DNA of 33,110 bases from Selaginella moellendorffii (Eukaryota > Plantae > Lycopodiophyta), in contig NW_003314265.1 of NCBI RefSeq assembly GCF_000143415.4, positions 3,195,651-3,228,760 on the forward strand. The letters run 5' to 3'. The notes under the pieces are model-generated. The model did not search any database. It was not told where the DNA came from and saw only the letters and a program-made list of their open reading frames with translations. Position numbers and translations under genes: made by a program. Shown here one piece after another: positions 1,459-33,110 of this stretch. Every line of letters starts with the position of its first letter. The first letter of the stretch is position 1.

Positions 1459-4044
1459 CATAGTTACGAACACGAACACGGAACACGAACACGAGCCTCA
1501 GATTTCAGGAACCCGAACACGGAACACGATCACGGCCCACGACGGCTCACGAATATTCTACTGAATATTCTAAGAATATGTTATTAAAAAATTATATTCT
1601 ATTTCTTATTATATTATTATAGGAATATGCTATATTTTATTATATTATTCTTAATATTTTTATTTGCACATAAACTACTTCACACTTTTAAACTACTCAA
1701 ATATCCTGCATCTCATCGTCATCTTCAACCTCATGATCTTCGACATCATTTCCATCTTCCTCTTCCTGTCCTGACTCAAGCTCGTCTTCAGGATGAGGAA
1801 CTGTCTCCAGGACTTTGTAGCTTACAAACTTGTCGTAATCACGATCATTTTTGCAGGTTAACAACCTGGTGTTGCAAGCCACAAAAACCAGATCCGCTGT
1901 CCTGTCCATGGTAAGTCTGTTCCTTTTTTTTGAAGAAACATGCTCTAAAGTACTGAACAATCTCTCCACCGAGGACGATGAGCATGCCTGACTTAGAACT
2001 CGAATGGCCAACTTCTGAAGAGCTGGAGTTTCATAACCATAGTCCTCCCACCAACGTACAGCTCCCCTCTTAGTGCGATCAACCTTAGCATCATATGAGT
2101 TGAAAATGCCTCCTATCCTCCGGTAAGTTAAAAGCTCATCACGTATCACATCCCTCTCACTGGATGTAAACATGGCCAGCAGATAAGCATTCCAATCCTT
2201 CATGACCTCTCTGTTAGCATGCTTTTCATACTCCTGAAACTCGGGGTCCAACATGTACGCCACCGAGTGCATGAGCGAGTGATACTCATGCCACCTATTA
2301 GACATGATCTGATGAAGTTCCCTATACCTGCCATAATCCGACTGTCCTTCCTCTAAACTTGCATCCAACCTATTCATGCACTCATATATCTTTCCAATCG
2401 CAGGTATATCACCGTCCACAACACGAAGAAGCAGCATAACATCCTTGGACACCTCTAGCATGTCCTTAACCTGTTGCCAGAAACTGCCATCAAAAACCGT
2501 TGCATAACTGTCCCTTCCTGCTCTCGACTTCGACTCAGGCCTTGCTCTGTATGCAGGGCATACGAACATCTGTTGTAAAGCTTCTCGGAGCTCCACCAGC
2601 CTCTCCATCATAATGAAGTTGTAGCCGAACCTGGTATCACAATAACGCAGCAATCGCTTGTGAGTAAACTCCGCCAGTAGTGCCACTATATGAGAGTGGT
2701 TTCTAACGAAGATCACCAAAGACTTTCCACGCTCCAGAAGTGTTGCCATCCATGGAAGTACACCGAAGTCTTTCAAGGCATTGTTCAAGCAATGGGCAAA
2801 ACATGCTGCCCATTGAATTTTCGGGTACCTCTGTTGCAAAAGTGCTGCTGCTGCTCTGTTTGCATTTTCCCCATCGGTCACAACCATGACAACGTTCTCT
2901 GCACCTACAATGTTAATGCCTTCTTCCCAGCAGCGCAGAGTATTTTCAGCTGTTTTTCTTGTTAAGGAAATGTCGATAGCCTTCAAAAAAGCTCCTCATC
3001 CTTGACTATATGCCACAAGCCCCATGATATGCCGATTCCTCCTATCTGCCCACCCGTCTGCGCATATGGTTGCACCCCTCTGCTCCCATTGCTTCCTCAA
3101 GGACGCCATCTCAATGTCAATGAATCGTTTCTCTTTCACCAAAAGCTTATCCCAGAGATCATCATATTTTGGTGGTGCATAAGGCACACCATGCCTGGCA
3201 ACTTCCTGTATCATGTTGAGGAAGTAAGGTGACCGAGCCTTGACAAATGGAATGTGTTCATTCCAGAAAAATCTTCCGATAGCCACATCAACTCGGTTCT
3301 TCCGCTCAGGATCCATCGAATCAACAATATGGACTTGACTCTGTTTGCTAAAAAACAGGGAACTGCAGCCACTTCCACTTGATTGGGATGATACCACCGG
3401 TGGAAATCCTTGGACATTGCCATCCATTCTCATAGAAGCACCACCAGATTCATTCGGCCGTTTCTTCCCCCTTGCCCCTTTCTCGGAATCAATAACCTTT
3501 TGCATATTGAGCAGATCCGCTTTCTTGTTACCTGGGATGAGAGGACAACTCACAATATCCTTGTTGCCTGGGCCTTCTCCTAACAGATGAGCTCGCACAC
3601 GATCAACACCACTCAGTTTGTTCACCATTGGGCAGTATTTGCATGACCATAATTTGTGGCCATGCCCCCTGCTCTCAAGAACACTTACCTCATCCCACCA
3701 TCGCGAAGAAGGATGCTTTCGCAGTATGCTGGATTGCTGCGCCATGCTTGTTTGCCTTGGATTGCTGCTGCTGTGCCCTGAAATGGTGCGCCCTGGCTGG
3801 ATTGTCGTGTGATGCCGTGCGCCCTAAAACCAGAATNNNNNNNNNNNNNNNNNNNNNNNNNNNNNNNNNNNNNNNNNNNNNNNNNNNNNNNNNNNNNNNN
3901 NNNNNNNNNNNNNNNNNNNNNNNNNNNNNNNNNNNNTAGTAACACGGACCACTGTTCCAAACACGGACGTGGGAACACGACCCATAGCCATGTTCGTGAA
4001 ACACGGTGAACACGGCCGGGATCCCGGCCGTGTTCGTAACACAG
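1459..4044 (-). mobile_element. hAT-superfamily DNA transposon, full length
   Basis: TIRs CATAGTTACGAACACG (1459) and CGTGTTCGTAACACAG (ends 4044). Perfect 8-bp TSD GATTCAAC at 1451-1458 and 4045-4052. Subterminal GAACACG/CACGG repeats at both ends and an internal transposase. Confidence 0.96.
1697..3745 (-). pseudogene. hAT transposase (BED zinc finger, DUF659-type catalytic region, C-terminal dimerisation domain) with one in-frame stop
   Basis: ORFs 2996-3745 and 1697-2986 share a frame and are separated by TGA at 2996-2998. Motifs: WSCKYC..H..C (BED), ADGW, VVTDG.N, CFAHCLN, DTRF, WWEDYG..P.LQKLAIRVLSQACSSSSVERLFS. Confidence 0.93.
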
Positions 4045-14333: not shown

Positions 14334-16352
14334 ATAACCAACAAGCTATAGTAAGTGAATGTTATAACCCTTTCCAACACTTTATAGGTAAACCCTTAAG
14401 GAACTAAAGTACCAACTTGAGCTTAGTATAATGGATCACTATCGAGAATCAAGTCAAAGCTACTGCAATGTTACTACTTGCAAATAGACTACCTTCACCA
14501 TCAACTACTTTGGGGTTGATCATCATTTGACCAAACAACTTCGTAAACACATTATTCATGATCACATAGATATGATATAAAATCACAATAACTTGATCAT
14601 CAATCGAGTAACACCATGAGCAACACCTATATCACTACAACCAAGGTTTATGTGAGTATCAAATGCTAACTCTATTTGATAAAATGCAATATAAATGTTA
14701 TACCCCACCGATAAAAATTTACAACATTAAATATCACCAACTTTATTCACAATATAGACAAGCTCATGCAATTCTCTTTTCTGACCAAACTCAAAACTTA
14801 TCTAACACCAAGGTACTCAAGGAGCAATAGTAAGGTTCCCTAGAAAAAAATTGAGCATTATAACCCAAGTCTTCAATAGTAAGCCTAGACAAAATAGTTT
14901 AGCATTTCATCACTATCCATCCCATAACTCACTATTTGTAAGACTATCATTTCCAACATGCATCAAGGTAGGAATTCTTGATTGCATAATGTGAACACAA
15001 GTAATGAATCACACTTTATTGTTAAATCATCTCTCCAAGAAGAGAAAATGATTTATGTGTTTGATCCTTCGTCCTTGACAACTCTCTTTTCAGGCTCTAC
15101 TTTGACTAAACCTCAAGCTTGCATTCACACTGCGTTCAATTTAATCCAAGAAAAGTTTATAAGAGAGCATGATAATGACTACCTGAACCAAAAGACTAAT
15201 CTCTATAGTCTTTAAGTGATCCACTTATAATCATGCTTAGGAAGGATCCACTAGTGCCATGCTAAGCAACTATAGACTAGCCTATTTGCTAACCTAGAGG
15301 AGGTTTACTTTTTCCCACGGTACATGGAGCAATTCATGGAACCATTGATAAGCTAACATTAATCCTGCCAACTCAAAGTGTAATCTTGAGTTGCTAATGT
15401 GCCTCACTCACGAGCCCAAGTGCAAACTTGTGCAAACAGAACATCTTAATCCATCTTATGAGCCAAGCAAAAACTTATATAATATGGTACAAAAAGGTAG
15501 CCAAAATCCATACCTAATGAACAAATACGAAGTCTTAGCACCCAATTATGTACCTAGGATTATCGTTTTCATCTTTATGTATGCAATGAGACTAGTTACC
15601 CAATCTCATTGGATAGTGCTTCTTGAGACATATTCTCTGATACCAAATATAGCGCATATGGTTTTTACCCTTTATCTTATGGTGATTTACCATAGGATAA
15701 CCATAAAGTGGAACCTAAACCCTCTATATGCCATGTGTCACATGCCACGTGCCATATGCCATGTGTCCAAGGACAGTGGAGCGGAACCCAAGTTTCAAGG
15801 CCTTGGGCCACTAAATGAAGGAACAGTGCCAAACTCACAAGCATGGAGCCAAGGAGTAACAAAACCGAAGCACGAAGTGACTCCCAAGTGTAAAGTTGAA
15901 AGAGCGAAGGGACAGAAGCATAGAGCAACTTGGAATAGTCCTAGAGCATCTAGCATCCCAGTGCCAGGACTAGCACGCAAAATGAAGCCAAGTGGAGTTA
16001 GCATACTAGTGGTCTAACACAAGGATAAAGGTACTCCACTAACTAGCATGGTATAGCTTGGGCTTAGGCTCAAGCCGGATACAAAACAAAGACAAGCATA
16101 CAAGCAGGAGCTAGACTATGCTTTAGGTTGGTAAACCATACCCAACCTACCTACTCTCCCTACTATACATTTAGAACCCCCATATCCCCCCCATGAGGAA
16201 CACGCACTTTGGGCTTTCACCCTTAGCCACCTGTAAGCAACCAAAGGGAACGACTTGAGAGACGATCCATGGGGTTTAAATATAGAGGGAAAGGGCCCAT
16301 GAAAAAGAGTGCACCCCCTTTTCCAATCGGTTAAGGGTCTTGGGATATTTGG

Positions 16353-16408
16353 GGTTAAGCGTCTTTGGGCTTGAATAGTACTGGGTTGGGTGACCTCCCG
16401 GGAAGTCC
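16353..16408 (+). promoter_or_regulatory. 5S rRNA-derived Pol III internal promoter (A box, IE, C box) in the Cassandra 5' LTR
   Basis: GGTTAAGCGTCTTTGGGCTTGAATAGTACTGGGTTGGGTGACCTCCCGGGAAGTCC resembles plant 5S rRNA AGTTAAGCGTGCTTGGGCGAGAGTAGTACTAGGATGGGTGACCTCCTGGGAAGTCC. Confidence 0.92.
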
Positions 16409-16751
16409 AAACTCAGGAGCTTACATTTGGTATCAGAGGGGTCTCGGGTCCGACTCTGTTGGTTGGCTAGGGAAATCACACCACATGTTGATTGACATCT
16501 GGCTGGTCCAGTTTGCTCCCACTGGGCTCGACCCGAGGGGTAGGGTGTCAAGAGAGCGGGGCTCTCGGGAGAGCTGCGGCTCTTAGCTTCCGTTCACGAG
16601 GGCGTGAACTTGCAGGGAAGCGTGGTGGATTGTAAGCAACCAAAGGGAACGACTTGAGAGACGATCCATGGGGTTTAAATATAGAGGGAAAGGGCCCATG
16701 AAAAAGAGTGCACCCCCTTTTCCAATCGGTTAAGGGTCTTGGGATATTTGG

Positions 16752-16807
16752 GGTTAAGCGTCTTTGGGCTTGAATAGTACTGGGTTGGGTGACCTCCCGG
16801 GAAGTCC
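16752..16807 (+). promoter_or_regulatory. 5S rRNA-derived Pol III promoter in the Cassandra 3' LTR
   Basis: Identical to 16353-16408. Confidence 0.92.
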
Positions 16808-19425
16808 AAACTCAAGAGCTTACACCACCCTTAGTACTAGGAGTTAGTTTCTAGGACAAGCTCGAATAAGCTCGAAACTTATTAAATATGGAATGTCCTT
16901 AGATTGCAAATTTGGATATAGGACAAACACTATTGTGTTCAGGACAATCTTCACATTCCATAAATATGCTAAATACACTTTATATAAATAGTATTTGGGA
17001 CCAAAATAAGACTAACACAAAGGGCATGATAACTAGGGTGTTTGGCAGGCATGGTAAGCTATCATCTAATGATATTGATGGACTAGTCTCAATATACAAG
17101 GGTCTTGTCATTAGCCAGTGCAAGACATAAAGAAATAGGAACTCCTTACTAAGCTAAGTATGTTTAGCTACTAACACGTAAGAATTCCGTCCTTATGCTT
17201 GTCCGGTTTAAATACACTTGAAATGCCCAATTAACTCCACTACCACAAGAGGGATTGATAAAGGGTTTAGCAATACTAACCTCCTGCCGTCATGGCAATA
17301 AGGAAAGAATATCTAAAAAGATTAGCTGATAGGTGATTTTAGATACCCAAAGTCACATTCGCAACAAGTATAAGGTTTTTTCTTAGAGAGTTGAGGATGT
17401 GATTCAACTAAGCATTTGACTTAGCAAACTGGCTAATGTGGTTATGGTAAACAACTATAGTTGGGATCACAGGAAGGATGAAGACTCCAAGACAATAAAG
17501 GAGTTATAGAATTATCCTTATATAGTTGAGGATGGTGCTTATGAATTTCATACTAAAATTAATGACCATGAGAGGTCAAATACGGATGCGGACACAAGTC
17601 CTTGAAATGGTAACTGGGGCTAGCTTTAATAAATGCTGGAACAATCTAAGGAGTTGGGTACTTAAAGGATGAGTTGGTATTCTTATCATATAGACAAATA
17701 ATTTTAAAGGGCAAAGATAGCCCACATGGAATAAAGAATAATCAAATGTCAAAATAACACTTGCAAAGATGGTCCTTGTAAGTAGGACATGAATGCAAGA
17801 AGTTGTATTTTAGCGAGTTGGCACCTCAAAAGTAGCCATGAGGCTAAAACTTTATTAGGGGAAAGAAGGAATGCCTCCCCCAAGGCTAGCTCAAACACGA
17901 GAAATGTTTCAATGTTTTTCAAAAATGCCCCCCCCCCCGCCCCCCCCCCCCGTTTTGCCCTTGTGGGGCAAGGGATGAGGAATATTCTAGGAATTGAAAT
18001 ATTCCCTCTCTCACTCTCACACTCTCTAAGTGGCCACTCTAACATATGACCATGGTGGATCGCATTGACTCCAGACATGCGAGAACCCTCCGAAGTACCT
18101 TTGTTGCTAATGCCAAGTGCTGGTAACTACGTGAAATAGTAAAAACTCTGGAAAAAGAAAGAAAAGAGATAGGTGTGAAATTTGAAGACAGAGAGAAAAC
18201 CCAGTGGGAAACCTTGTAGTCAAACTAGACCCTGATATAAAAGAAAAAGTGTGAAAAGAGAAGAAAAATAGAGGAAAAAGATTGAGTATCCAAAGAACTT
18301 AACCCGTACCTGCCTTACTTGTGGCCTTGTCTGTGACCTTGCATAAAGATCCACTTAGGGGGATGGTCCAAAGTTGAGTTGAGCTCAATTCAACATAAGT
18401 CAACTCAAGTCAACAAAGTCAATAAGAAATATTACAAAGGAGATCTAAATTGAACAAATGAAGGTTCTAGCAAACTTTAAAATATTAAAATACGTAAATA
18501 TCTAAGTTAAAAGTTTCTATAAGATTGAATTGTTTAAAAAAGACAAAGTTCATAAGAACCTATCTTTTATAAAACTATATTATTTTATTATGACAACTAT
18601 TACAGCTGTCATATTGGATTTGACTACTTAATATTTTGAATACTTTTACAGCTGTAGATACTATTCCTTCATTCAAAAGATTTTTTAGGGTTCTTGAGAA
18701 GATGGGAAGCAAGGAAAATACAAGATCTGTGAGTAAGAGTTGTAGTGCAAAGGAATGTGAGAATGTTAATTTTGTTTCACTACCACAATCTCTATATTAC
18801 ACTCCTGGTCCTTATTACCCATCTAGGAATGTAGAGACCACTATCACAATTGATAAAAATGCTCCTGTTACTTCTGAAACAACAGTCCAGAGCAAGAGAA
18901 ATGAAGAAATGAACAACATAGCGGAAAACACCAAGAAATCTACTCCATAAAACTTTCCATGACATTTGTAATTTACATATTAATTCATATTAAAAACTCT
19001 ATTGCTTGCCTATATTGCAATCCTCTCATATGATAAGACCAAGGTATATTTTGTAGTGAATCCTCATTAAAAGTTTTTGGGAATTGTTTGTAAATAATGA
19101 TAAAAGAAATCAAAATCTTTCGAAAGACTCAAAAGTAATATCACATCAAAGAATCAACTTTATCTACATTTCCAAGACTGAAAGGCAATCTCATATGAGA
19201 GAATGGTAGCGTGCCAACGTGCTCTACCACTATAATGTGGTCTATATTTCCTTGCAATTTATTTCCCTAGACATTTGGCATGTGTAGAAAAGAATATATG
19301 TGTAGCAAAGTAGGATTCATCATAATGATAGAGCATGTGTATACACGATAATCTAAAATTCTAGAAGCTCTTATGTTTACAAAAAAGCTATGATTATGAA
19401 GCCCCATTTCCAAGACTGACATTTA

Positions 19426-19561
19426 AAGAATTTGAGTATTGTCAGTGTCATAATAAATAAACCTCATTCCCAAGAATTTGAGTATTGTCAGTGTCATAAT
19501 AAATAAACCTCATTCCCAAGAATTTGTATTGTCAGTGTCATAATAAATAAACCTCATTCCC
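19426..19561 (+). repeat. 46-bp tandem repeat, 3 copies
   Basis: AAGAATTTGAGTATTGTCAGTGTCATAATAAATAAACCTCATTCCC twice, plus a third copy lacking 2 bp. Confidence 0.95.
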
Positions 19562-19846
19562 AAGACTAAAACTTAGTATATAAACTATCTAGAAAAGTTA
19601 TAGTCATTGTAAGTTTTTTGTTCTCCTTGAGCTCCTTAGAAGTTTATATTGAAATGGCTCAAAGGAGACTTATTGCTAATCGTATTTGGCCCCCCAGCAT
19701 TTCATATTAATCTCCACCTCCATCCCCAAGTTCTACCAACATTCCANNNNNNNNNNNNNNNNNNNNNNNNNNNNNNNNNNNNNNNNNNNNNNNNNNNNNN
19801 NNNNNNNNNNNNNNNNNNNNNNNNNNNNNNNNNNNNNNNNNNNNNN

Positions 19847-20464
19847 GGGCTCTAGTGAAGCTGAATTAGAGCTCCCTATATGTGAAATTCCAGATCTTGC
19901 TACTAGAGAGGGATTGCCTCCAGTGCTTCAAGAGCAATGCCACATGTTTTTGCAAAATCTTGCTCCTGACATGGCAGGACTACTTGAAAGCATAGAATGT
20001 TAGTACATTCGGTGTCCAATATGCTACTTTTTCTTGGACAAGACAAATGGCTTTATGGGTTTACAAACTTTTCTTGAGCACTGTAAAAATTGCCCAACGG
20101 CAAGTCTGGAAAATGTGCACGTGTGGATGTACAATAGATTCAAGAATGAGTTACAGACACATACCCACTATCACTTCATGGTGAGGAACAACATCCCTTT
20201 GGGAAACACTGCATTGGCTAGTGCAAAATATGGGGTTTTTAGGCCACCCTATAGTGGAATGTAAGATCTAGAATTACTTTACTATATTATAGTATTGTCA
20301 CTATTAAAAGAAAAAATATAATAAAATGATATTAGTTGTAGGTAACATACCTTGTTCTAGGTGCTATCATATCACATACAATTGTTTACAAAATGTTAAA
20401 GGAGGAGATGGCAACACACAAGTGCTACAAAGTGATGGTGACAGGTGAGAATGATAATCTATAA
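19847..20464 (+). pseudogene. Fragment of an unknown gene with a Cys/His (zinc-finger-like) motif
   Basis: ORFs 19686-20003 and 20034-20264 share a frame across a TAG and read RCPICYFF...LEHCKNCP. GTAAG donor at 20261 and a possible last exon at ~20361-20464. The 5' part is lost in the N gap. Confidence 0.45.
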
Positions 20465-20551
20465 TTATGGTATCTGACACTGACACTGACATCTGACACT
20501 TTCACTGACATCTAACATATAACAAGCTTTCCATTTTATGTAAGGATGCGA

Positions 20552-22497
20552 TTAATTTTCTTCTGCATCATCATCAACATAATGATTTCTTTTATACTTC
20601 CTCCTATATTGGTATTGTGGGGAAGATTCACCTTGCATATGTTGAGCCATGGCTTCTGCATAGTCAGGGAGACTTCCAAAGCCTCCAATTCTAGAAACTC
20701 CAAGTGACTGTGATCTATAAAATAGAATGAAATATATATTGAAATTTTAATAAACATAATTTACCTCCTTGAGGTTGAAGGCAACTCACGAAATCCTCTA
20801 AGCCAGCATTTGAAGAAGTGATGTTCTTCAATAGCAAACACTGACCTACCAGAGTTACGTGCTGCCTCCACCATAGAACCGCTACCTGCTATGCAATCAA
20901 TCACAACACCATCTGGTGGGCAATAGAGCTCAAGCAAGACTTGCATTGCCGATGGAGTTTGGAATCAGTACTCTGGAAACGTATTGCGGATCTGCTCATC
21001 CACAAGGTTGGGTATGATGTTAGTGGAACTGTCATACCCAGGCAAAACACGTGCTGCACATTCACTATCGCGAAACCCATCATGTGTGTTTCTGCAAAAG
21101 GCATGATAGGTCCACATCATAACCTAGAAAATAAAAATGTTCAGAAATTAGATAAAAATATAAAATACATACTCACCTTTTCAGGCTTCCCTTGGACGCC
21201 CCTCATATCAACGCCAATAGGATCTATGATGCACCCGGAAGAGAATGACTTGAAATGAACTTCTACTACACACATCATAAGCTCATACATCCAGTTGGGG
21301 TCGTTCGGTAGGATGAAGACGACATGGCCAGCTTCGAGCATAAGTGCTTCGAACAATAGGAATGCATCGCGCAAGTGGTCAGGTGTGAGAAAGTTCCAAT
21401 CCTCAATTTTCCCATCGATATCTGAAAGACCATTTGGAAAGTCGAAGAGAATGAAGTCCGCAACTGGGAGCACGGGCCTTTGTATCTTTCGGCACCAACG
21501 GTTAAACTGGCGGTGTATATCCATGTTGATGTCGTCTTCCGTGAAAGATGTCAATAATCTACTGTAAGAGCCAATAAAGATACCCACAATGCCTCGTTGG
21601 GTTATTGGGGACACAGGACGGACCTATAAAAGAGCTAAGTGAATGAAAAAAATAATAAATAGTATGATACTGTTATATGGCGTGTTGTCGATGAGAGTTC
21701 CTCCAACTCCTCTTCACGAGCATCTCGTCGAGCTGGAATGAAATTACTACCAACAGTCATTGCTGCAAAAAACATGTATTACCACCTTTAGTTTGTAAAA
21801 TTCACTTTTGCTTACCTCGAGGTTGACGTGATATTCTATGAACCACTTGATCATCATTATTTACTGGTAGAACCTGATTCGGATTTTGGTTATTTGATGG
21901 TTGAATTGGAGCCTGTTCCTGACTGTCTGGTGGTGGAACACAAACTTAATCTTGAGCTTCCTCATCCTCGTCTCCATTGTGATTTGCATTGCCATCATTG
22001 CTAGCATTGATAATTTCCTCACGATCTAGTGTAGAAGTCTCCTTCCCTAGGAGCTCCAACTCCCAAGGGCATTCTATCTTCCGTGCCTTCAGAACTCTCG
22101 CAAACATTGTTGGGTACATTCTTCCATCCCTTACACCCTTTGCAACAAGTCGAGTGCAAATTGGTGCCTCAAATGGCATGCCTCTATATCGAAGATACCT
22201 GTAAACAATATATATTAAAAAACAGTCAAGCTCTATTTCGTTAAAGTGGGAATTGTCATTATCCCACTTGTAAAATAAGGTTTCCAAACCTTTATATAGT
22301 ATATAAATATAACAAAATTCAACTGCATTGAGGCATATGCCATTTTATTTTAAACAAGGAAATGTCTACTCAATCACTTCTCCTCCCCCTGCCACTGCTT
22401 CACCTCTCTCTTCTCCTTGTCATCGTCGTCCAATTTCTTTCCATCCTTTTAATATTGGCTCAGTTGCTCCGAGTCTAGGTGGAGCCCAAGTCCCCAT
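20552..22497 (-). pseudogene. Spliced beta-class N4-cytosine/N6-adenine DNA methyltransferase-like gene
   Basis: Phase-consistent GT-AG exons: 22370-22497, 21816-22198, 21671-21762, 21177-21623, 20765-21123, 20552-20714. Motif IV-like ADFILFDFPNG (cf. DLIxTDPPY) lies upstream of FQTP..MQVLLELYCPPDGVVIDCIAGSGSMVEAARNSGRSVFAIE (cf. QKP..VLDPFxGSGT..AA..GR..IGIE). In-frame stops at 22420-22422, 21946-21948 and 20965-20967. Confidence 0.8.
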
Positions 22498-22669
22498 TCA
22501 ATCTTTACTTTCCCCTTATTAATAAAACAACTTCGCAGACTTCCAATAACATGCTGTAACACTTCTAGTATAATGCAAATCCTCTCAAAGAATTGTCTTT
22601 TAATATTAATACAATGGCATGGAACCCCATGCCATAATAAGTTACATTTTTAAATAAATACATGCCATC

Positions 22670-23532
22670 TCAGACTATTATTTTTTGCCTCCAACGCCTA
22701 TACAATAATCTTGGAATTTCATCACTCTCCACACTATCAGGATTTAAACCCAATAGTAATGCCATCTCTTCTCTAATACGTCCATGCTCATGTTCAGTGG
22801 TCGAAGAACCCATCCGGTTGAGCAGATTATGGAGATGCGGATAGTGCTTGACTAGACAATATACATGCCATAAATGATAACTGGTGTCTATCCGATCAAA
22901 TGGCTTCTGATATACCGTTCCATCTGCCATTTGGTTGATTTCTGCAGCCACCTCCTGGACTGGCCAGTTCTCTATCACCATCGCTCCAAGCCGTTTTGCA
23001 AGGTCCCCCAGAACATACGGTTTCTTCTCCCTAGTTTCCATATTGCAAGAGATGGGGTGCACTGCATATGTGTGCGTGTTTGCTGCAGTTTTAATCGGCG
23101 AGTCATCAATGATGAGGATTTCACTTGACCTAGCAGTCCGGTTCATCACTACAGCCTCTGGCTTGACGAAGATGGGCTTGCTACCCCTCACATGGACCAT
23201 AGTCAAGCAATCCTCCTGCGTTAGGAGAAAGTCAAATGGTAATATTACTTGCGTCTGATCGTGCATCATCTGTAGCAACGTTAATGCATTGTGGCGCATC
23301 ATGGATGTCCAAACTCCTAATTACAAATTGAACCCGGCCCTCTGTTTTAAGTGTCGCATGGTCATTATTAGATCCCGCAGTTTCTCCCGTGTGATTAACG
23401 TGAATCTGTCTCTTTTGACCAACTTGTGACCGCAGGCTTTGGAGGGTGCAGTGACATTCGAGGACGAGCCATGCTCATGGGAGAAAAGGACACCGTTCAG
23501 ATCAAAAACGATACAGTACTTTCGCCGTGACT
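22670..23532 (-). CDS. Exon encoding a HAD-superfamily FCP1/NIF-like phosphatase domain (one internal stop)
   Basis: Motifs DLNGVL, WTS and IDDSPxK..N....HP. ORFs 23321-23554 and 22670-23302 are in frame. Confidence 0.8.
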
Positions 23533-26500
23533 CTGAAATGAAATGCGTCAGCATAAAAAATGGTACAAGTCAATTTTACCATCTACAATATTAGCGAATG
23601 GTGCTCCCGATGGTCGTTTAGAGGGTTTTGGTCGAGGAAATGTGAAGGGCGGAAATACTCTCCTCTGCAATGTGGGGTCAATCGCATCCGATGGCGTGTG
23701 GGCACATGCCATTTCAGCTGTAGACTCTGGTACAACTGGCTCAACAGTGGCATGGGGTGGTTCCGATGGCGTGTGATCACACGCCATTTCAGCTGGTGCC
23801 TCCGTTGGCAAAGTGGACATGACCGAACAGGCAGCAGGGGCGGTGTAGGGAGGTTCCAACAGTGCGTAGTCAGACGATTGGGCACACGTTGAGTCCGTTG
23901 GAAATGAGGATACGACCGGCTCGGCGGCTAGGGCGGCCTCATGCGGGTCCAATGGCGCCTGGTCACCGTCAGTTGGATACGTGGACAAGATTGACTCAGT
24001 GGTATGGGTAGCATCAAGTGGAGCGTGGTCAGCTTGCTTGGCGTTGATATGGATAGTAGCCTCCACCAGCTCTGATGACTCTTGCAGGCAAGTAGAGTCC
24101 ACTGGCGGATCCATATGCATGTCCAAATATCTCCCTTCGATTGAGATGGTATCCTCCCTACTGGCTACTAAAAACAAACTCATTAGCACATTGAATCGAC
24201 TATACTGTATTTACCATCAACTGCTATTGTGATTCTGAAGGATTGGACATACATTTCGACCTTTGCTTGGCACTATCCTTCCTCGACACTAAAGGCTAGA
24301 GTTTGTATCTTAATTCAACTGAATAATCTCTACTTACCATTTGCTTTGCAACCTACATGGACAATGTTAGAAATGGTAAAAGGTTAGGAATGGATGTACT
24401 ATTATTTACCTGATGGTTTGTCTTGTATGACCTTCCTCCGCTGCTCTTTGGCCACCTCAGGCTGGCCATCGTCGTCATCATCGTCATCGTCGTTATTGTA
24501 ATCGTCACCATTGTGAGGACCATCCAAGTCCTCTTCGTCCTCCTCTTCTTCGTCCTCCTCTTCTTTGTCCTCCTCTTCGTTCTTCTGCTCTTCCTGCTCA
24601 TTATCTTTCTCTGGCTCCTCATCCCCCTCCTGCATTTCTTCCATAGGCTGCTCAGGCTGGATGGCTTGTTCTTCCAGGACCATCTTGGGAAAATCATCTG
24701 GCCGAGTCTCCATCTCAAAATACAAGACATCCATAGCCTGTTTTAGTGCGTGACCTAGGACTGTATCCTCACCCGATTGTCTTAACATGGTTTCTGCATG
24801 TTCTTGCACCCTTCGAAGACGACGAGATGAGAAAAACGTGGCCCTGACTTGAAAAGCATCCCTCATCCATTGTACCTCTCCATTGAGATTGGGGAAGGGG
24901 AGTCCGCCATAGGAATCTGAGTCAGGAGGTGGTGACCGCGAGGCATTACCTATCATCTTTTCGTTGCCCTTCTTCCTTTTCGAATCAAACGCCTCTGATC
25001 CCGACGACTGTCCAACGTGATTTCGCTTTTTATGACCACTGTCAGTTTGAGCTTGGCTGGTGCTTGCCTGTTTTGCCTTTGAAGAAGTGTCTCTTGCAAG
25101 GAATGGCATGAGACCACACGCCATTGCAAATATAATTTGTACCTCCTTTTTTCCTATTGCTTGTCTGTTTGTCCTTCTTTGATGTGCCACCAGTGCGCTT
25201 TTCAGTCCTCGTGTCTGAATATTCACAACGATCTATAATCAAAATGGCATGAGGCCTCACGTGACCTTACCTTGTGCAGGTTGTGAGCTCGGCCCAACAG
25301 TAGCTGTTAACGCCGTTTCAGCATCTGGGGGTGGCCACGCTCCTGCATACAGAGCTTGTGAGATAACATTTAAACTTAAAGTGCGTACTCACCAGGTTCG
25401 CAGAGAAGATACTGTTTTTCTTTGGCAACTGTAATTATATGCTTCATTGAAGTCACCTCTTCAATGGAGTTTGTCACCGCAACACACGGGACACCCTTGA
25501 GTAGTGCGGCTCGAAAGAATAGTCCGCCGCAGTTGTACTCGACAACGCATTTGCCCTTGGAGTCGGAAGCAGGTGCTATTGCATTGAAGACCCAGCTGAG
25601 CATTTCCCATGCTGCACCTGGAGCTTTCTCTGGATTCGAAAGCTCCATAGCCGTCTTCAGTTCCTCAGGCACGGGTAAATTGACCTCCCTCAGATCAATT
25701 CGATCGACCTTGTCGAACGAAGCTGGGAAGTCACTCCAGTCCCACTCTGCTGCAGGACCAATAACAAGGGCGAGTGTGAAGATGCGGACATTCGTCGGTA
25801 TCTTCTTCTTAGCCATTATCCCATGGATCTCCTGCATCTCCTTGCCTTTCAACCGAGCTTTCACCTCGTTCAAGGCCTTCCAGAACTTGTGATAGGATTC
25901 GGAGTCGTAGATCATATAGTGGACTGAAGATTCCACCTCCGCAAGTCCCACCATTAAGTCAATGATGGAGCTGACTTCGTCTGCATGAGTGATCTCCTCG
26001 TTTGTGAAGTCCATCACACAAAAGATGTTCTTGACCTGCTCATCTCCGCGGGAAACGATGCTCCTCCACCTTTGATCCTCATCCGAATTCACGTATACCC
26101 GGTAAGGTTCCCGATAGGCCTCTGCTGCGGGGTCGAGCTGTTTCTGAAGTCGGCGGTCGACATCCCTCTTAATGGAATTTGGATACTGATCCAACTTCTC
26201 AGCTTTACTTTTCGTGGCATCCCGCAGCAGATCGATGAACTTGGGGGCCCCCTTCACGTAGTCGTCGATGTCTTCATTTGACAACTTCAGCTCTTCCATC
26301 ATCTCTTGCGTGGTGTCGATGCTCACCCTCTCCACGGCCACTTGCTCGAAGATCCAATCCTTCAATAGCGCACGAGCTCTCAGATTCGTGCACAAGTCCT
26401 CGTATGTCACAATATGGCCGGGAGTCATTTTGGTCTTGTTGAAGACTACTTCACCACGTAGAAGAGCATTAGCCACTGTCAGAAGGTCGTCGTCGTCTAG

Positions 26501-28182
26501 AGACCGTGAGAAACGCAAGGCGTTGAGCTTCAAATCATTGGGCTTCCGACCGTCCTCCACACCCATTGAGTTTAGCAACTCCCCGTCATGGTACCTCCTC
26601 AGCACATCTACCCATTTGTCAAAAACAACTTTTGTCGCAAGTAGAATGTTATGGATGCTGAGTGTGTCATTGACCCCCAGTGTTTTCGAGAGAAGACTCG
26701 AGAATTCCTGCAATGGAAATGGCGTGAGGCCACATGCNNNNNNNNNNNNNNNNNNNNNNNNNNNNNNNNNNNNNNNNNNNNNNNNNNNNNNNNNNNNNNN
26801 NNNNNNNNNNNNNNNNNNNNNNNNNNNNNNNNNNNNNNNNNNNNNNNNNNNNNNNNNNNNNNNNNNNNNNNNNNNNNNNNNNNNNNNNNNNNNNNNNNNN
26901 NNNNNNNNNNNNNNNNNNNNNNNNNNNNNNNNNNNNNNNNNNNNNNNNNNNNNNNNNNNNNNNNNNNAGACTTTCTTCACCTCCTCGCCCACCATAATAT
27001 CCACAACTATCTCTTGCATCGCCAAGCTAGAATGCTGCCCGGAGACGGCATAGAACCGGATGTTCTGATCGTCCAACACCTTCCTATTGATCAAGTCTGG
27101 AAACCTCGTCTCGCCCTTCATTGTTCGGTAGTAGGGGATCACGTCTGCGATGTCGGGTGTTACTGGACTTGCCAGCATCTTCTGCTTCAGTTTCTCCACC
27201 CACTCATCAGATACTAGCCTATGGTTGTATTTGCTTTGGATGTCGATACGGCTCACGTCGATTGTATATACTTTGTTGGAATAGTAACAAGTACTATTAT
27301 CTGCGACGATTTTTGCTGCCTCTTCTTGCTCTTTCTGCTCTTTGCGGCTCTTCTTTTTAGTGGGTGTAGTGTTTGAACCCGAGGCAATGGCATCACCGAG
27401 TAGCTTCTTTTTTGGAGCAAGAGAGTTGGACGTCGGCTTCACTTTGACCACCCTTTTCTGCTTCGGGGTAGTTTCCAGATCGACCCCCTTCCCCTTCGCT
27501 TCGTGAACTGGAGGCACTCTCAACGGCTCAATGTTGGAATATAGTTTTTGAACATCGCCGTAGGTGAGGTCCATGGATTCCATGTGATCTTCATAGACCC
27601 GCAGTGTCTTTGAAATTGTGAGCCTCCTGGACAACCTCTCCCTAGCTCCCTCTAGGAATTCCTCATAGCCGCTGCCCCCCTCTAGGAAGCCGCTAGGATG
27701 TGCAAGGTGGATCTTGAAGGCGAACGCTGTCTCTACCACAAGTGCCAGTCCATATTCTTGCATGGAACTGCATGGAGTGTCTGTCACTTGGATGAGGATC
27801 CCCATGCATTCTTTTCTCCCACCATCTGTGTTGTACAGCCTCAGATCCTCGCCTTCCATCCCGAAAGTCCAACTGGTGAGCTCCTCCCCCTTCTCTGCAT
27901 CCACATTGACAGTGGCTGGAAGAAGAACGTAATTCCTCGCCTGTTCAGAAATGCACAACAATTAGAGCTGACAGATGAAAAGCTAGCAGCTGGAAATAAC
28001 GTGAGGCCACACGCCATTCACCACTGCATCAGATGTCTTGAGGCTGCATCATAAGATGGCGTGAAGCTACACGCCATCTGTAACCGGACTGCACTTGAGA
28101 GCCCAATCGGTGCATACCAATGTTGCTACTGAATGGCATGTGGCCTCATGCCATTTTCTACTTGGCCTAAAAGACTTACCAT
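22670..28182 (-). pseudogene. Large spliced gene: ParB/Srx-like domain + degenerate methyltransferase-like domain + acidic/low-complexity linker + HAD (FCP1/NIF-like) phosphatase
   Basis: Approximate exons: ATG 28180-28182, 26968-27940, (gap), 25393-26707, 25271-25342, 25143-25214, 24410-25090, two micro-exons at ~24253-24352, 23580-24167, 22670-23532. Phases fit outside the gap. ParB-like YTIDVSRIDI...NHRLVSDEWVEKLKQKM...FYAVSGQHS. PEKAP..CVVEYNCGG..RAALLKGVPCVAV. HAD CIVFDLNGVL, GVWTS, ILIIDDSPIK. One in-frame TAA at 23321-23323. Confidence 0.68.
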
Positions 28183-28860
28183 TTGAAGCCGAATGGAGGC
28201 CGTGACAATCGAGGCCGGACTCGCTGGCGAATGTGCACTGTGTGTGCAGCGGATCGTAGCAGCAAGGCTACTCTGCCACTTACAGTTGGAGAGTGGCGCT
28301 GAAATCTCCCGAGACGCCAAGTGGGCTGCGTGTGGGTGGCGGAGTGGGCGGCGGAGTTGGCGGCGAAATTACAAACTGGGTGTGTCTTGAAGTGGACGCC
28401 GATGCACACGAGCGCGATGCGAGTGCGAGTGTGATGCAAGCGCGAGTGGACGCCGATGCACACGAGAAACCTGTAGAGAAGTGAGCGTGATCGCGATGCG
28501 AGCAGGAGCGCGAGTACGAAGCAAAATGCAAAACCTAACCTCACATGCGCGAAATGTCACAACGGTTGGTAATCCCGCCACATCATCATTCCTCGGACTT
28601 GGGCACCACCATTAATTTCTGGATTGCCGCGCGCATGCAAGCATGCAAAATCCAAAAGAAATCCGCAACGTCATCATTCCTCGGACTGCATGCACGCGAA
28701 ATCCAAAAGAAAGATCATGATTGGGATATCATTTAATACCCTCGCTATATTTATACCATGCATGATTGGATATTCCAAAGCATCTTGTATTTCCAAAAAT
28801 GGCAGATGTTCAGCTAAATAAAGAAATTCTATCTGTTTCTATTTTTCTCTCAAATAAATA

Positions 28861-30180
28861 TTATAGCGTGTGGGCTCATGCAATTTTGAACCAAAGAAAC
28901 CCAAAAAACGTTGGACCCAAAATATTTTGAAAAAACCCAAAAAACCCTAAACATTTTAAACCCAAAAATCCAGGCGTCCTGTGGCGTTATTCCTTGAATG
29001 GCGTGTGGGCGCATGCCATTTTCAGGGCCAAATGCTGAATGGAGAAAAATTCCCTTTCAGTGCAAATGCTGCAAGAGGCAGATGCCGAGCACAAAGGACT
29101 GTAACTACCTCACATGACACAGATAAACTTTTCTCTATTTGGCAAAGATAAACTTTATAGCGTGTGGGCTCATGCAATTTTGAACCCAAAAAATGCACCA
29201 AAAAATTCTCGGCGTCATCTGGCGTTATCTCTTGAATGGCGTGGGGCCGCATGCCATTTTCAGGGGCATATAGGAGTATATTCCTAGGATATTCTAACAC
29301 GCGCGAGATTTTTTTGAGTTTTCTGGAGATCCAACCATTAGATCGCAACTAGATTTTACAGAATGGTATACAATGTCTTTCTTGATGACCCTGCAAAGAA
29401 ACATCTCGATCGGACACCACATGAGACCACACGAGCCTTACAATGTTTCAGGGGCATTTGCCATAGAACCGACCGTTATTTTGGTCCAAGATTTTACAGT
29501 TTGGTGTGCATTGACCTTTCCATCGACACTGCAAAGGGACATCACAATCAGATGCGGGATCACAAGAAACTAACTTCACTAACTCTGGTTTCACCAAGAT
29601 CTACGTAAGGAGTTATGAAATGAAAGGACCCTCTCTATTGAAATGTGTTTATGGTCCTAGGGGCATTGTGACATATCAAAGGATTTTGCATCAAGTTCTG
29701 TATTTGCATGTTTATCAAGCTACTGAATTGCTAAACCCTAAACTCTAAACCCTAAACATGTGGCAAATGCTGCGTGAAGAAAGATGCCCTTTCTGGGCAA
29801 ATGCTGTAAGAGGCAGATGCCGAGCAGATGTATCTCAGGCTAGCGAAGGGGACAAACGAAAGCTAGCTATAAACATGACGGGATGCAAATAGATTACTAG
29901 GCTGGTCCTGCGAAAATCAAAAACCATAATTGAAAACATTGAAAATGCAAAAAGAAAGGTTTATAATATTTTTGAATTTTAAGCAACCAAAGGAATGTAA
30001 GTAGGGCATGTGTTTGTAAGTCCTCAACCACTTAAATTCCCAAGTAAATAAAGCTGTTTCTATTTTTGGTACAGGTAAACTTTATAGCGTGTGGGCTCAT
30101 GCAATTTTGAACCCAAAAATGCACCAAAAAATGCTCGACTAGCATTATTCTTTGAATGGCGTGTGGCCTTATATTGCCAT
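28861..30180 (+). repeat. Three copies of a ~100-165 bp block, each with two palindromes, in the divergent intergenic region
   Basis: TTATAGCGTGTGGGCTCATGCAATTTTGAACC...TTGAATGGCGTG at ~28861-29027, ~29155-29265 and ~30082-30180. Confidence 0.85.
29731..29757 (+). repeat. Short plant telomere-type (CCCTAAA) / telo-box repeats
   Basis: CTAAACCCTAAACTCTAAACCCTAAAC. Confidence 0.7.
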
Positions 30181-30543
30181 AAATGGACGTACACATAGAG
30201 CATAATTATTCCTTTACACGGCGAATAATCTTGGCGCGGATCGCTGACATGGCATGGCAAAGTTTGAATCACTGACATGGCACAGCTGGATCGAGGCAAG
30301 GACATGATGTGACAAAGTTCAACCTCCAACAGCAAAATCTAGAAGCTACTCAGTTTGAAATTTGTCAGAGTCATAAAATCTGGTTTGTCAGAGGATTTGA
30401 TGTGACGTTCAAGCGTGTGTTATTTTTGAATTCTCGAACTCATTCCTAGGTCTATCATTTTTGTGCGCCGTGTTCTTGGTTCCGCTGAGCGCAGTGAGCG
30501 CTGCTTGTGTAAGCGGCGTTGTGCGCTGTGGTTTATGCATTTA

Positions 30544-30676
30544 CGAGCGGTTGCGGCATTGCGAGCGCCATTGCGAGCGGCAGTTTATGCGAGTGGCAGT
30601 TTGTGCGAGCGGCGCTACGAGCAGTTGCAGTGTTGCGAGCGGCACTACGAGTAGTTGCGGTGTTGCGAGCGGCACT
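30544..30676 (+). repeat. GC-rich TGCGAGCG-based tandem repeats upstream of the transposase
   Basis: TGCGAGCGGC recurs at ~30-bp spacing (30604, 30634, 30664), with shorter units upstream. Confidence 0.75.
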
Positions 30677-31039
30677 GTCTTTGGTGTGGCTACCGCTTCC
30701 TCTTGATATTTAGCACTTGTGCTTCCTGGTATGTTCACCATGGAATGGCTTAGGACCACATTTAGAAATGGCATGAGGCCACATGCCATCTTGGGCCCTT
30801 GCAATTTCATGGCTAGCATATTGTCATGTATGTTTTTACTTGCCTGCAGCTGTGTGTATATCAAGATGGCATGAGGCCTCATGCCAATTTTGTGAATGCG
30901 AAATTTCACGTGGGTGTCAATAGCATGTTTGAATAATGGCATGTGGCCTCATGCTATTGAGGTTGTTTGGTATGTTATGATTTAGGCCATTCTCCAATCA
31001 TTTTTTGTATGGTCTTAACTTCTTTTCTGCACTTTCAGA

Positions 31040-33085
31040 ATGGCCTTCAGGGTTGGGGAAAAGGTTTACATTTTGAATGGTGGGAAGAGAGTTGCAAAAG
31101 GGACCCTTGTGTCTATGGATCGGAACTTTGTTATACACTGTCAAAGGCTTGGGGAAGGCAATGCTGCTGTATCAGTAGCGACTGTCTTCGATGGGAATGT
31201 GGTTGCTATTGAACGAGGAGAGATGGTCGTCGGGGTAAATGTTGTTGTTGCCTTGAAAAATCTTCAGAAGAAAGCAGATGTTGGGGACAGCACAAGTGCG
31301 ACGCATGTTCCCTCCGCAGATCTTAAGAACTGTGTTACATGGATTCAGGCGAAGGTGTTTCTAAACAACCCCGAGGGGGAGGTGGTAGCTGAGGGCTTAG
31401 CCACAGTTGTCGATCCAAGAGATGCGGTTGCTAATCAAGAATTGGGCTGGGATGATATTGGAGTTGCAATTTTAGAGGTTGTTGACACAGAAGAAAACAG
31501 TCTGACTATTGGAAGCATTGTGCGGTGGAAATTGAGGCATTTAGTGTTTGAGAATGTGAAGGATTCACAATCAAACACCACTACAACTGATGACAGAACA
31601 TNNNNNNNNNNNNNNNNNNNNNNNNNNNNNNNNNNNNNNNNNNNNNNNNNNNNNNNNNNNNNNNNNNNNNNNNNNNNNNNNNNNNNNNNNNNNNNNNNNN
31701 NNNNNNNNNNNNNNNNNNNNNNNNNNNNNNNNNNNNNNNNNNNNNNNNNNNNNNNNNNNNNNNNNNNNNNNNNNNNNNNNNNNNNNNNGTCCTGGAAGGC
31801 AGCTCGCAATTTTGTGTATGAGGCATTACGGTCATCTGTTGATGCTAAGAACATCAGGTGGGGGGCATGGTCTTCCAGAGGGGTTTGGTCTGCATGAAGG
31901 CATGGAGAATCATTTATGGAGTCCCTCGAACCACATTCTACAGAATCAAAACTGAGTTTGAGGAACAAAGGGTTCAACAGGCAGTCCATGGGAACAACGG
32001 TACGCACAAAACCAGGGGTCATGTTGTATATGGAGAGGCAATCTTCAAGAGGTTTGTCGAGACATGTAGCGAGCAGCAACCACATAAAACCCGCCTCTTG
32101 GAAGATGGAACACGAGACACCCAACGAGTTCTCCCTTCCATGTATACCAAGGGGGCCATATTGGAAGATGTGAATCGGGAACTCCAGAGTAATGGCTACA
32201 GGAAGCTGAGCCAATCTAGATTTAGTAGATTGTGGAGCAATAGGTTCAAGGATGTGAGTATAGGAAAGTACTCCAGCTTTTCAAAGTGTGACGAGTGCAC
32301 TGCTATCAAAATGGCTTTGTCGAAGAATTCTTGCAGCGCTCAAGAGCAAGAGACGTTGGTTAGAAGGCGGCTCGACCACAACATCAAGCAAAGAAGCTGC
32401 AGGATTGCATATTATCATAACAGGATTCTCTCCATGGAGAGACCTGACTCTTACCTCTGCATCATCCACGACAAAATGGACCAGAAAAAGATGTGCTTAC
32501 CTCGACTCAATCCTTGCCCCAAGGCAATCTCTTCATCCATGCAGCTGCTTGTGTCTCTATTTGGCATAATCGCTCATGGGCATGGTGCCCAGAACTATGG
32601 GAACTTCTTTGTACCTCTATGGGGTGGCGTGGGTGCAAACATGATGATTGTGTCCCTAGCAAAACACTTAAGGTCTCTGCAAAGTGCGCAGACTGAGTTG
32701 CATAAGGCCCTTGTCGATTGAACCCCATACAGGGTTCAGCTGGAGGAGGAGCAAAGGCTTGCAGTATCGCATGGGGCCTCATGCCATCCCAGTGAATATG
32801 TTGGCCGTCAGATTGTAGGGTTATCACGTGAGGCCTCATGCCATTCTGACGAGGCTGGTCGCCCGGTGAATGCACAGCCTCATCCAAACGAAGCAGAATC
32901 TCAAGGAAGTTCTTGCGGCCGATGTGGCCTTCCACCCCATCTTCTGCTCCAAACAGACAATGTTGGCAGTGAGAACAAAAACATGTACGTCTTCGCGTAC
33001 TTGGCGATGCTTGTTGCCAAAGGCATATTTGAAACGGGTTATACTTGGCTTTCTCATGGTTGGGCACACTCATAAAGACGTCGAC
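31040..33085 (+). pseudogene. Sola-like DDD transposase with two N-terminal SH3-like (Tnp1/En-Spm-associated type) repeats; disrupted
   Basis: VCMKAWRIIYG, FSKCDEC, IIHDKMDQKK (D1), LLLQTDNVGSENKN (D2), GFLMVGHTHKDVD (D3). Frameshift in a G-run at ~31858-31865, in-frame TGA at 32719-32721, +1 frameshift at ~33036-33038. The N-terminus has VAKG..IH..LG...VSV and VAEG..DP..LG..VAI..IVRW repeats. Confidence 0.75.
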
Positions 33086-33110
33086 GGACCAGATCACAAT
33101 GTTGATTAAT

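Follow-up and report, generated by a model that had tools for sequence, protein, structure and literature searches.

What reads a 22-base word that a plant transposon carries some twenty times, mostly in its introns and around its promoter? The question is raised by a 33,110-nucleotide stretch of the Selaginella moellendorffii genome (contig NW_003314265.1, positions 3,195,651 to 3,228,760; hereafter the window, whose own numbering we use). An earlier note, made from the letters of this stretch alone, had reported about 20 dispersed 22-bp palindromes with a fixed 6-bp spacer close to a ParB-like gene, and had suggested that they bind a dimeric protein, possibly as a parS-like loading array. 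We find that the palindromes belong to a giant, high-copy DNA transposon of the DUF7869/Sola1 type, in which a transposase gene and an accessory gene are transcribed divergently, and that related elements carry palindromes of their own. The explanation we favour, to which we give slightly less than an even chance and which we derive from sequence, is that a dimer of the ParB-like accessory protein encoded by the element binds the palindromes, and would thereby recognise its own family and likely keep its copies expressed despite host silencing.

A family of 22-base dyads

Searching the window with ATGGCRTG-N6-CAYGCCAT returned 9 exact matches, 12 with at most 1 mismatch, 17 with at most 2 and 19 with at most 3. 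All of them lie between 22614 and 32844, with none in positions 1-22613. In 100 dinucleotide shuffles, the search at up to 2 mismatches gave a mean of 0.03 and a maximum of 1, compared with 17 in the real sequence. The spacing is indeed fixed, as other spacers from 0 to 14 gave at most 1 match each at this threshold; the 11 matches obtained with spacer 11 at up to 3 mismatches are probably offset re-matches of the same palindromes. A matrix scan was bimodal, with 18 complete sites scoring 26.5-36.3 and the next scores at 12.8 (a half site at 30156) and 9.4. The half site and a site at 26719 that is truncated by unread bases (N) bring the total to 20, in agreement with the number first reported. 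GGCC is central in 11 of the 20, and the copy at 23766 is a perfect palindrome, both as had been described. Because the six middle bases are themselves partly conserved (consensus ATGGCRTG WGGCCW CAYGCCAT), we regard the unit as a 22-base dyad.

The mostly non-coding placement of the sites was also borne out. Sixteen of the 20 are non-coding, the introns that hold sites check as GT-AG introns, nine sites fall at 28.8-31.0 kb, and the four within open frames are those at 23691, 23766, 32766 and 32823. As about 62% of the element is coding, four coding sites represent a depletion (binomial P=1.7e-4, some sites being duplicates and thus non-independent). One location needed correction: the site at 22614, said to lie between two genes, is behind the accessory gene, 387 bases inside the end of the element, and the methylase gene beyond 22227 is in another repeat. 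The first 386 bases from that end are free of palindromes.

The sites belong to one high-copy transposon

At position 22228, contig depth rises about 10-14-fold in two DNA runs (from 5.9 to 60 in X4, and from 47,000 to 675,000 in X1), and two X4 contigs break at 22227/22228. The 11-mer ATTTCGTTAAA of the terminus recurs at the right end of six related loci (L001, L006, L008, L013, L014 and L016), preceded by AA-N5 in five of them, although chance matches to the 11-mer also occur. From the depth step, the contig break and the terminus shared with relatives, we conclude that a single transposon, high in copy number and longer than 10.9 kb, holds all the sites. Of the terminal inverted repeats that mark Sola1 elements, only one end falls within the window, and its sequence matches the motif at the opposite end of relatives. 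The family diverges by about 1-2%; the window copy differs from the family majority at 36 of 3,151 bases, mostly by transitions of the methylation-decay type, and both of its genes carry breaks. Viral contigs held no exact match to the motif and no relative of the transposase.

We take DUF7869 to be the Sola1 transposase family. Sola1 elements create a 4-bp target duplication and prefer AWWT (PMC3845634; here and below, statements about published systems reflect the accessible parts of the sources), and the flank at the end of our element is AGTC, not AWWT. The accessible part of PMC4738411 contains no description of this element. Just inside the terminus, at 22243-22268, lies a different palindrome, AGTGGGA-N10-TCCCACT, a possible transposase site.

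The arms are probably read as double-stranded DNA

Across 39 arms, T7 is invariant, T2, C5 and G8 are each kept in 38, G10 in 36, and the outer G3 in 27. Positions 5-6 read CG in 17 arms, CA in 21, TG in none and TA in 1. Since decay of CpG would yield TG as often as CA, the C of the arm CpG appears to be kept while the G may vary. At the two variable paired positions, 19 sites show G/T (8), A/T (6), G/C (3) and A/C (2), so that 9 of 19 are Watson-Crick pairs and there is no co-variation. This pattern fits a protein that reads duplex DNA and not a hairpin.

It also bears on another idea, namely that the sites work by folding into RNA hairpins or cruciforms, or else arose neutrally through local duplication. 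Any palindrome is able to form a good RNA hairpin; among five sites that we folded, three gave hairpins better than shuffles (z -2.7 to -2.9), and several sites lie within duplicated blocks. However, the other two folded sites did not beat shuffles (z 0.3 and -0.6), changes in the arms are uncompensated while exact letters are kept, and the flanks of the intronic copies are unrelated to each other. We consider this explanation very improbable.

Related elements carry private palindromes

We compared 80 of 289 metagenome loci with a related transposase (746,928 bases, 16 clusters). Eight of the 16 clusters carry at least three copies of a palindrome of their own, 16-30 bases long and mostly located upstream of the transposase and in introns. 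Copies of the own word number 8 in L001, 2-3 in L003/L004, 10 in L015/L029, 11 in L023/L025, 12 in L033 and 6 in L027; at up to 4 mismatches, the L008 family has 9 in L012 and 12 in L018, and some copies of a moss-like cluster have 4-6. Among the remaining eight clusters, L002/L005, L007/L009 and L019 have 1-2 copies and L006/L013, L021, L022, L026 and L056 none, and in all eight, the sequence ahead of the transposase match amounts to no more than about 1.2 kb.

A cross-scan with 12 motifs was nearly diagonal. The diagonal is partly built in, because the motifs were derived from the same loci, and the informative part is the almost empty off-diagonal; the window motif itself has only 2 matches in the 80 loci. 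A motif-free scan for dyads upstream of transposases found 5-12 dyads in 7 of 28 loci scored, compared with at most 3 in the controls (shuffles, seven other stretches of the window and 12 distal flanks). Furthermore, L023 and L033, whose transposases are 83% identical, have words with the same change mirrored in both arms, TTACGGAC..GTCCGTAA versus WTACGAAC..GTTCGTAW. A family-private word that drifts symmetrically points to a dimer encoded by the element, and since the word changes between families, we consider it very probable that the binder is element-encoded. The dimeric binding site first proposed therefore gains from the constrained arms, the lack of hairpin co-variation, the relatives' private palindromes and the confinement to the element within the window; the binder itself is a prediction from sequence.

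A host factor would fit these observations poorly. The arms contain GCCAT, often followed by T, as might suit, for example, a YY1-type protein reading GCCAT or a TCP/bHLH factor, and GCCAT/ATGGC is also found in the words of two families with transposases among the closest (L001 and L007, 43%). However, conservation is higher at the inner arm positions than at the outer G3, most families have unrelated words, and 22.2 kb of flanking DNA contains no site. We judge recruitment of a host factor to be very improbable.

A more serious candidate is the transposase, whose Cys-rich N-terminal region might bind the palindromes as internal sites for auto-regulation or transpososome assembly, with the ParB-like gene as a bystander. 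The words do track transposase clades, being similar within L015/L029, L023/L024/L033 and L002-L005, and palindromes occur in eight clusters while accessory-gene remnants occur in one. The L012 locus has sites without a visible accessory gene, and AtMu1 is a case in which the transposase by itself binds cognate copies and activates them (bioRxiv 10.64898/2026.08.24.746577). In that system, however, binding peaks at the terminal repeats. Here, families have the terminus motif in common, while the internal word is private and does not occur at the ends of the window copy or of L001, L008, L014 and L016, the last four of which have no sites near their right termini; this argues against ordinary end-binding by a transposase. 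In addition, ParB-like cargo with inverted repeats occurs under an unrelated transposase in Plavaka elements (bioRxiv 10.1101/2025.02.11.637652). Transposase binding, which the earlier note had listed as an alternative, fits the distribution of sites less well than accessory-protein binding, and we consider it unlikely.

Two further observations were made in these loci. At L023:1-330, the contig edge holds an opposite-strand exon and, after it, an intron that bears a palindrome, much like the first intron in the window's accessory gene. Also, the palindrome GGTGTTTAT(A/T)AACACC, which is possibly a conserved 3′ signal, is common to the otherwise distant families L001, L003, L006, L007 and L013, just past the transposase stop.

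The accessory protein

As two contig sets that are possibly RNA yielded no splice joints, we built the gene models from sequence and homology. In these, the NIF part of the accessory gene is connected to the remainder by an in-frame GT-AG intron at 23579-23533. We considered the NIF region as a separate gene and rejected this on the basis of that intron and of the fusion of NIF in a fern protein. The predicted protein also has acidic and Pro-rich linkers. A full HMMER search with it found five relatives, among them Selaginella and Adiantum proteins, and two word-index searches with the exons gave no match.

In the Adiantum homolog (P0020, 1,125 residues), the domains follow one another as in the window, and NIF is recognised at E=7e-17. 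The N-terminal part of this homolog scored 0.95-0.96 in Atlas for DUF3723 clusters and 0.91 for a ParB_N cluster, and is 23% identical to the window piece over R..V..L and SGxHS..A. The canonical cytidine triphosphate (CTP)-binding motif of ParB is GxxRxxA, and His-type variants exist in the wider ParB superfamily; the corresponding position reads SGQHSSLA in the window and SGLHSIHA in the fern protein, and so departs from the canonical form. After the ParB-like region there is a conserved helical domain, which is confidently modelled. PDB sequence searches returned nothing meaningful. Two AlphaFold models are poor over the ParB-like and methylase-like parts (predicted local distance difference test, pLDDT, below 50 for the ParB-like part), and four fold searches gave no match above background. 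We consider a ParB-like nature of the accessory protein plausible, though by an indirect route through these alignments.

The next domain is an Atlas lead, at 0.86, to a methylase. The canonical catalytic motif of beta-class methylases is (D/N/S)PP(Y/F/W). At the motif-IV position, the window has DFTN and homologs have DLRR, DSAN, DAAH or DATT, the catalytic PP(Y/F) being missing in all aligned homologs that reach this column, and the fern homolog is without the S-adenosylmethionine (SAM)-binding half. This domain is therefore probably inactive. The NIF domain has DLNG in both window and fern, where the canonical motif is DxDxT.

These features also weigh on the possibility, raised earlier, that the sites are methylase targets, here of an N4C/N6A methylase encoded by the element. 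The ParB-like region does carry a methylase-like domain in fusion, and it has been proposed for algal relatives that they modify the DNA of their own copies (PMC12477816; bioRxiv 10.1101/2025.02.11.637652). However, the catalytic motif is missing in the window and in every homolog that reaches its column, half of the domain is gone in the fern, and a better-preserved methylase gene nearby is part of a different repeat, in which the site does not occur. The missing PP(Y/F) and the position of that gene outside the element weaken this alternative, and we give it a very slight probability.

What may bind the sites, and to what effect

We propose the following sequence of events. A two-fold symmetric protein would read both 11-base halves of the site in double-stranded DNA. 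This reader would be encoded by the element, and would be the accessory protein and not the transposase, an assignment we hold to be somewhat probable. Loaded at promoter and intron sites, the accessory protein might spread or clamp in the manner of ParB and of Shigella VirB, and might act like VANC of Arabidopsis. The NIF domain and the methylase-like domain, both probably inactive, could then be modules that contact DNA or chromatin rather than enzymes.

Several findings weigh against this proposal. The ParB-like identity given to the gene by the earlier note is plausible by way of the fern homolog and weak by direct search; the window's own piece reached a ParB-like PHROG only at E=0.11, a Pfam search of the window protein found no ParB family, and the fold models are uninformative here. 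We identified no DNA-binding helix-turn-helix in the accessory protein, for which models are poor and fold searches are at background. Among the 80 related loci, most of whose contigs are too short, accessory-gene remnants were found in just one of the 16 clusters and a ParB-domain match in none, and L012 combines nine degenerate palindromes with a further 8 kb of upstream sequence that has no visible accessory gene. Many of the relatives' sites lie in tandem repeats, which inflates their counts, and some sites of L010, L015 and L027 are downstream of the transposase. Conservation between copies, a check that the earlier note had called for, was not significant (0 differences in 192 arm bases versus 2.2 expected, P=0.10). 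Finally, CpG decay is not lower near the sites (6/100 within 100 bases of a site or inside it versus 9/188 beyond, P=0.78). In favour of the proposal, the ratio of observed to expected CpG is higher in the element (0.70, and 0.87 for the promoter) than in three other repeats of the window (0.37-0.56), although youth of the element can explain this. For these last two reasons, anti-silencing is the role that we infer and prefer, and not a result.

The one cluster with remnants of the accessory gene is the moss-like one, in which they lie upstream of the transposase on the opposite strand: a helical-domain remnant in L062/L065 (E=0.0055) and a NIF remnant in L066/L067 and L074 (Pfam E=0.002-0.003, below the cut-off). 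The upstream consensus of this cluster, which is too decayed to read, gave no accessory match. NIF-like frames on the opposite strand, at L066:7966-8613 and L074:1186-1529, are 1.6-1.9 kb upstream of the transposase match, and that of L066 directly adjoins the palindrome array. In the moss-like family, the layout of the accessory gene may therefore differ, or the gene may be truncated in another way.

If the accessory protein is the binder, there is a good probability that its role is mainly regulatory or anti-silencing. One counterpart is VANDAL21 of Arabidopsis, whose accessory protein VANC21 binds family-specific motifs in introns and intergenic DNA (PMC5735166); VANDAL is named as the sole transposon for which binding and modification of the element's own sequence are known (bioRxiv 10.1101/2025.02.11.637652). 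Here too, a family-specific motif sits in the non-coding parts of the element, private words occur in half of the clusters, and sites cluster at the divergent promoter and in 5′ introns, resembling VANC21 targets. VANC21 motifs multiply by tandem duplication and differ between families, as do the words of our relatives. On the other hand, VANC motifs are asymmetric, have 8-9 bases and belong to a Mutator-like element, whereas ours is a 22-base dyad in a DUF7869 element; we noticed no homology to VANC, for which no dedicated search was made; and anti-silencing has been shown for VANC21 (PMC5735166) and is only proposed here.

A second counterpart is bacterial ParB/parS and Shigella VirB/virS, in which a ParB-family protein is loaded at defined sites, VirB being a ParB-derived clamp able to counter silencing (bioRxiv 10.1101/2023.06.01.543266). 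Our element likewise has repeated palindromic sites near the gene. It differs in its eukaryotic chromatin, in having SGQHS (SGLHS in the fern) at the CTP motif, and in that a scan of the open reading frames of the element, which is incomplete in the window, gave no ParA-like match. The likeness to parS also suggests a purely mechanical function, in which clamps loaded in the middle of the element slide or bridge so as to unite the distant ends of an element of more than 11 kb, or carry the excised element, without anti-silencing. Dyads of 16-22 bases resemble parS in size and symmetry. Elements with such cargo are giant (21.5 kb in Ectocarpus; PMC12477816), and we observed no local protection of CpG. 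However, the sites cluster as VANC targets do, the sequenced part is without a ParA-like gene, and the domains of methylase-like and NIF type suggest a function in chromatin or transcription, so we find a mechanical loader distinctly unlikely.

Two algal systems are close in gene content. Sola1-1_Ec32 of Ectocarpus (PMC12477816) is likewise a giant Sola1 element with a ParB-like and methylase gene on the strand opposite to the transposase, and its termini also begin with AA. It differs in that the accessible text mentions no internal palindromes, while the element described here has a methylase-like domain that looks inactive, a fused NIF domain and a plant-type host. In the red alga Bostrychia, the PAG3 gene of a Plavaka (EnSpm) element is a ParB-like accessory gene with inverted repeats nearby, and PAG3 has been proposed, as a proposal only, to bind its own transposon (bioRxiv 10.1101/2025.02.11.637652). 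That element has a different transposase, a 2-oxoglutarate (2OG)-oxygenase fusion and tandem arrays beside the gene, compared with single sites across introns and coding linkers here, and family-specific words are not reported in the accessible part of the study. ParB-methylase cargo on giant Sola1 elements and ParB cargo with inverted repeats are thus already published for algae. New here are a land-plant-type case with single sites through introns and coding linkers, the fusion with NIF and with a methylase that is probably inactive, and a set of sister families that have words of their own. Dispersed palindromes in Sola elements of plants did not come up in our literature search, whose coverage did not extend to subscription journals or Repbase.

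Features of the element and of the remaining window

The features of the element are collected in Table 1. The transposase gene is broken by a stop at 32719-32721 and, relative to other copies, by indels near 31845, 32697 and 33036; its relative P0002 matches PF25273 (DUF7869) at E=5e-50. Some copies are without the 244 bases of 31046-31291 (a joint seen in a DNA run), which gives a shorter transposase N-terminus as in P0001, and the N-terminus consists of repeated modules.

Table 1. Coordinates of the transposon, its genes and its palindromes in the window.
Feature	Position	Strand	Remarks
High-copy giant DNA transposon, DUF7869/Sola1-type	22228..33110	.	Contig depth step; right end beyond window; >10.9 kb
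Element terminus AA-N5-ATTTCGTTAAA	22228..22246	+	Matches right end of related loci
Palindrome	22614..22635	.	3′ of accessory gene, 387 bases from terminus
Accessory gene, inferred splice model	22670..28182	-	ATG 28182 to 22670, GT-AG signals; divergent from transposase
Accessory NIF/FCP1-like domain, DLNG motif	23532-22670	-	Stop at 23321-23323 in this copy
Two palindromes (23691, 23766)	23691..23787	.	Coding Pro/Ala/Thr-rich low-complexity linker of accessory gene
Palindrome	25103..25124	.	52-nt GT-AG intron 25142-25091
Degenerate palindrome	25244..25265	.	56-nt GT-AG intron 25270-25215
Accessory degenerate methylase-like domain	~26100-25400	-	
Accessory helical domain	~26700-26150	-	
Palindrome cut by N gap	26719..26737	.	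Directly before acceptor at 26708
Accessory ParB/DUF3723-like region	~27300-26970 and into N gap	-	
Three palindromes (27996, 28056, 28133)	27996..28154	.	Accessory-gene first intron 28179-27941, 239 nt, GT-AG
Five palindromes (28863, 28998, 29157, 29236, 30084) and half site 30156	28863..30177	.	Between divergent genes, partly in local duplications
Three palindromes (30768, 30866, 30936)	30768..30957	.	Predicted transposase 5′ intron/leader; splice model from GT-AG signals
DUF7869 transposase gene, broken copy	31040..33110	+	PF25273 E=3.3e-10; cut by window end
Two palindromes (32766, 32823)	32766..32844	.	Variable insertion of transposase catalytic region

The window as a whole is plant-type DNA with introns of 47-57 nt and with hAT and Gypsy-like remnants, the latter presumably Gypsy from our reading of the open reading frames. 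Next to the element is a second, lower-copy repeat (18540-22227) that contains a spliced beta-class methylase gene on the minus strand (~22220-20760), which the palindrome-bearing element truncates at the 5′ side. This gene matches PF01555 at E=5e-6 and has an intact GSGS SAM motif, DFPN at the catalytic motif and one stop. We considered it as part of the palindrome element, and rejected this because of the depth step and the contig break at 22227/22228. The repeat has its own short direct repeats (CTGACA/TGTCAG) and a 46-bp tandem at 19426-19561, and has neither a dyad family nor the motif. On its plus strand, at 19850-20262, a Cys/His-containing frame converges on the methylase gene; its stretch 20004-20261 had no PHROG or NCBIfam match. 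Further away are a hAT element at 1697-3823 (DUF659, Dimer_Tnp_hAT) with one stop and subterminal CACGAA/CACGG repeats at 1455-1550 and 3940-4040, and, in a repeat resembling a long terminal repeat (LTR), a duplication at 16232-16824 with a 399-base period that is 99% identical over 194 bases and has the appearance of either a small LTR element or solo LTRs in tandem.

Implications

The locus offers a sharp 22-base candidate site, a high-copy family that can give an intact protein, and sister families with mirror-image changes in their words, so that both binding and its specificity are directly testable. A wider conjecture, which we regard as possible though doubtful, is that giant eukaryotic DNA transposons of several superfamilies use a private identity code of the ParB/parS type: a nucleotide-gated sliding clamp encoded by the element would load at the palindromes of its family in introns and promoter, spread along the entire element, and shield it from host silencing, and protein and word would drift together between families. 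If true, this co-drift would amount to a natural library of orthogonal 16-30-base pairs of DNA address and reader for plant chromatin. If the accessory protein does bind the palindromes, a ParB-type clamp would be acting on eukaryotic chromatin, which would help to explain how cut-and-paste elements of more than 10 kb stay active in methylated plant genomes.

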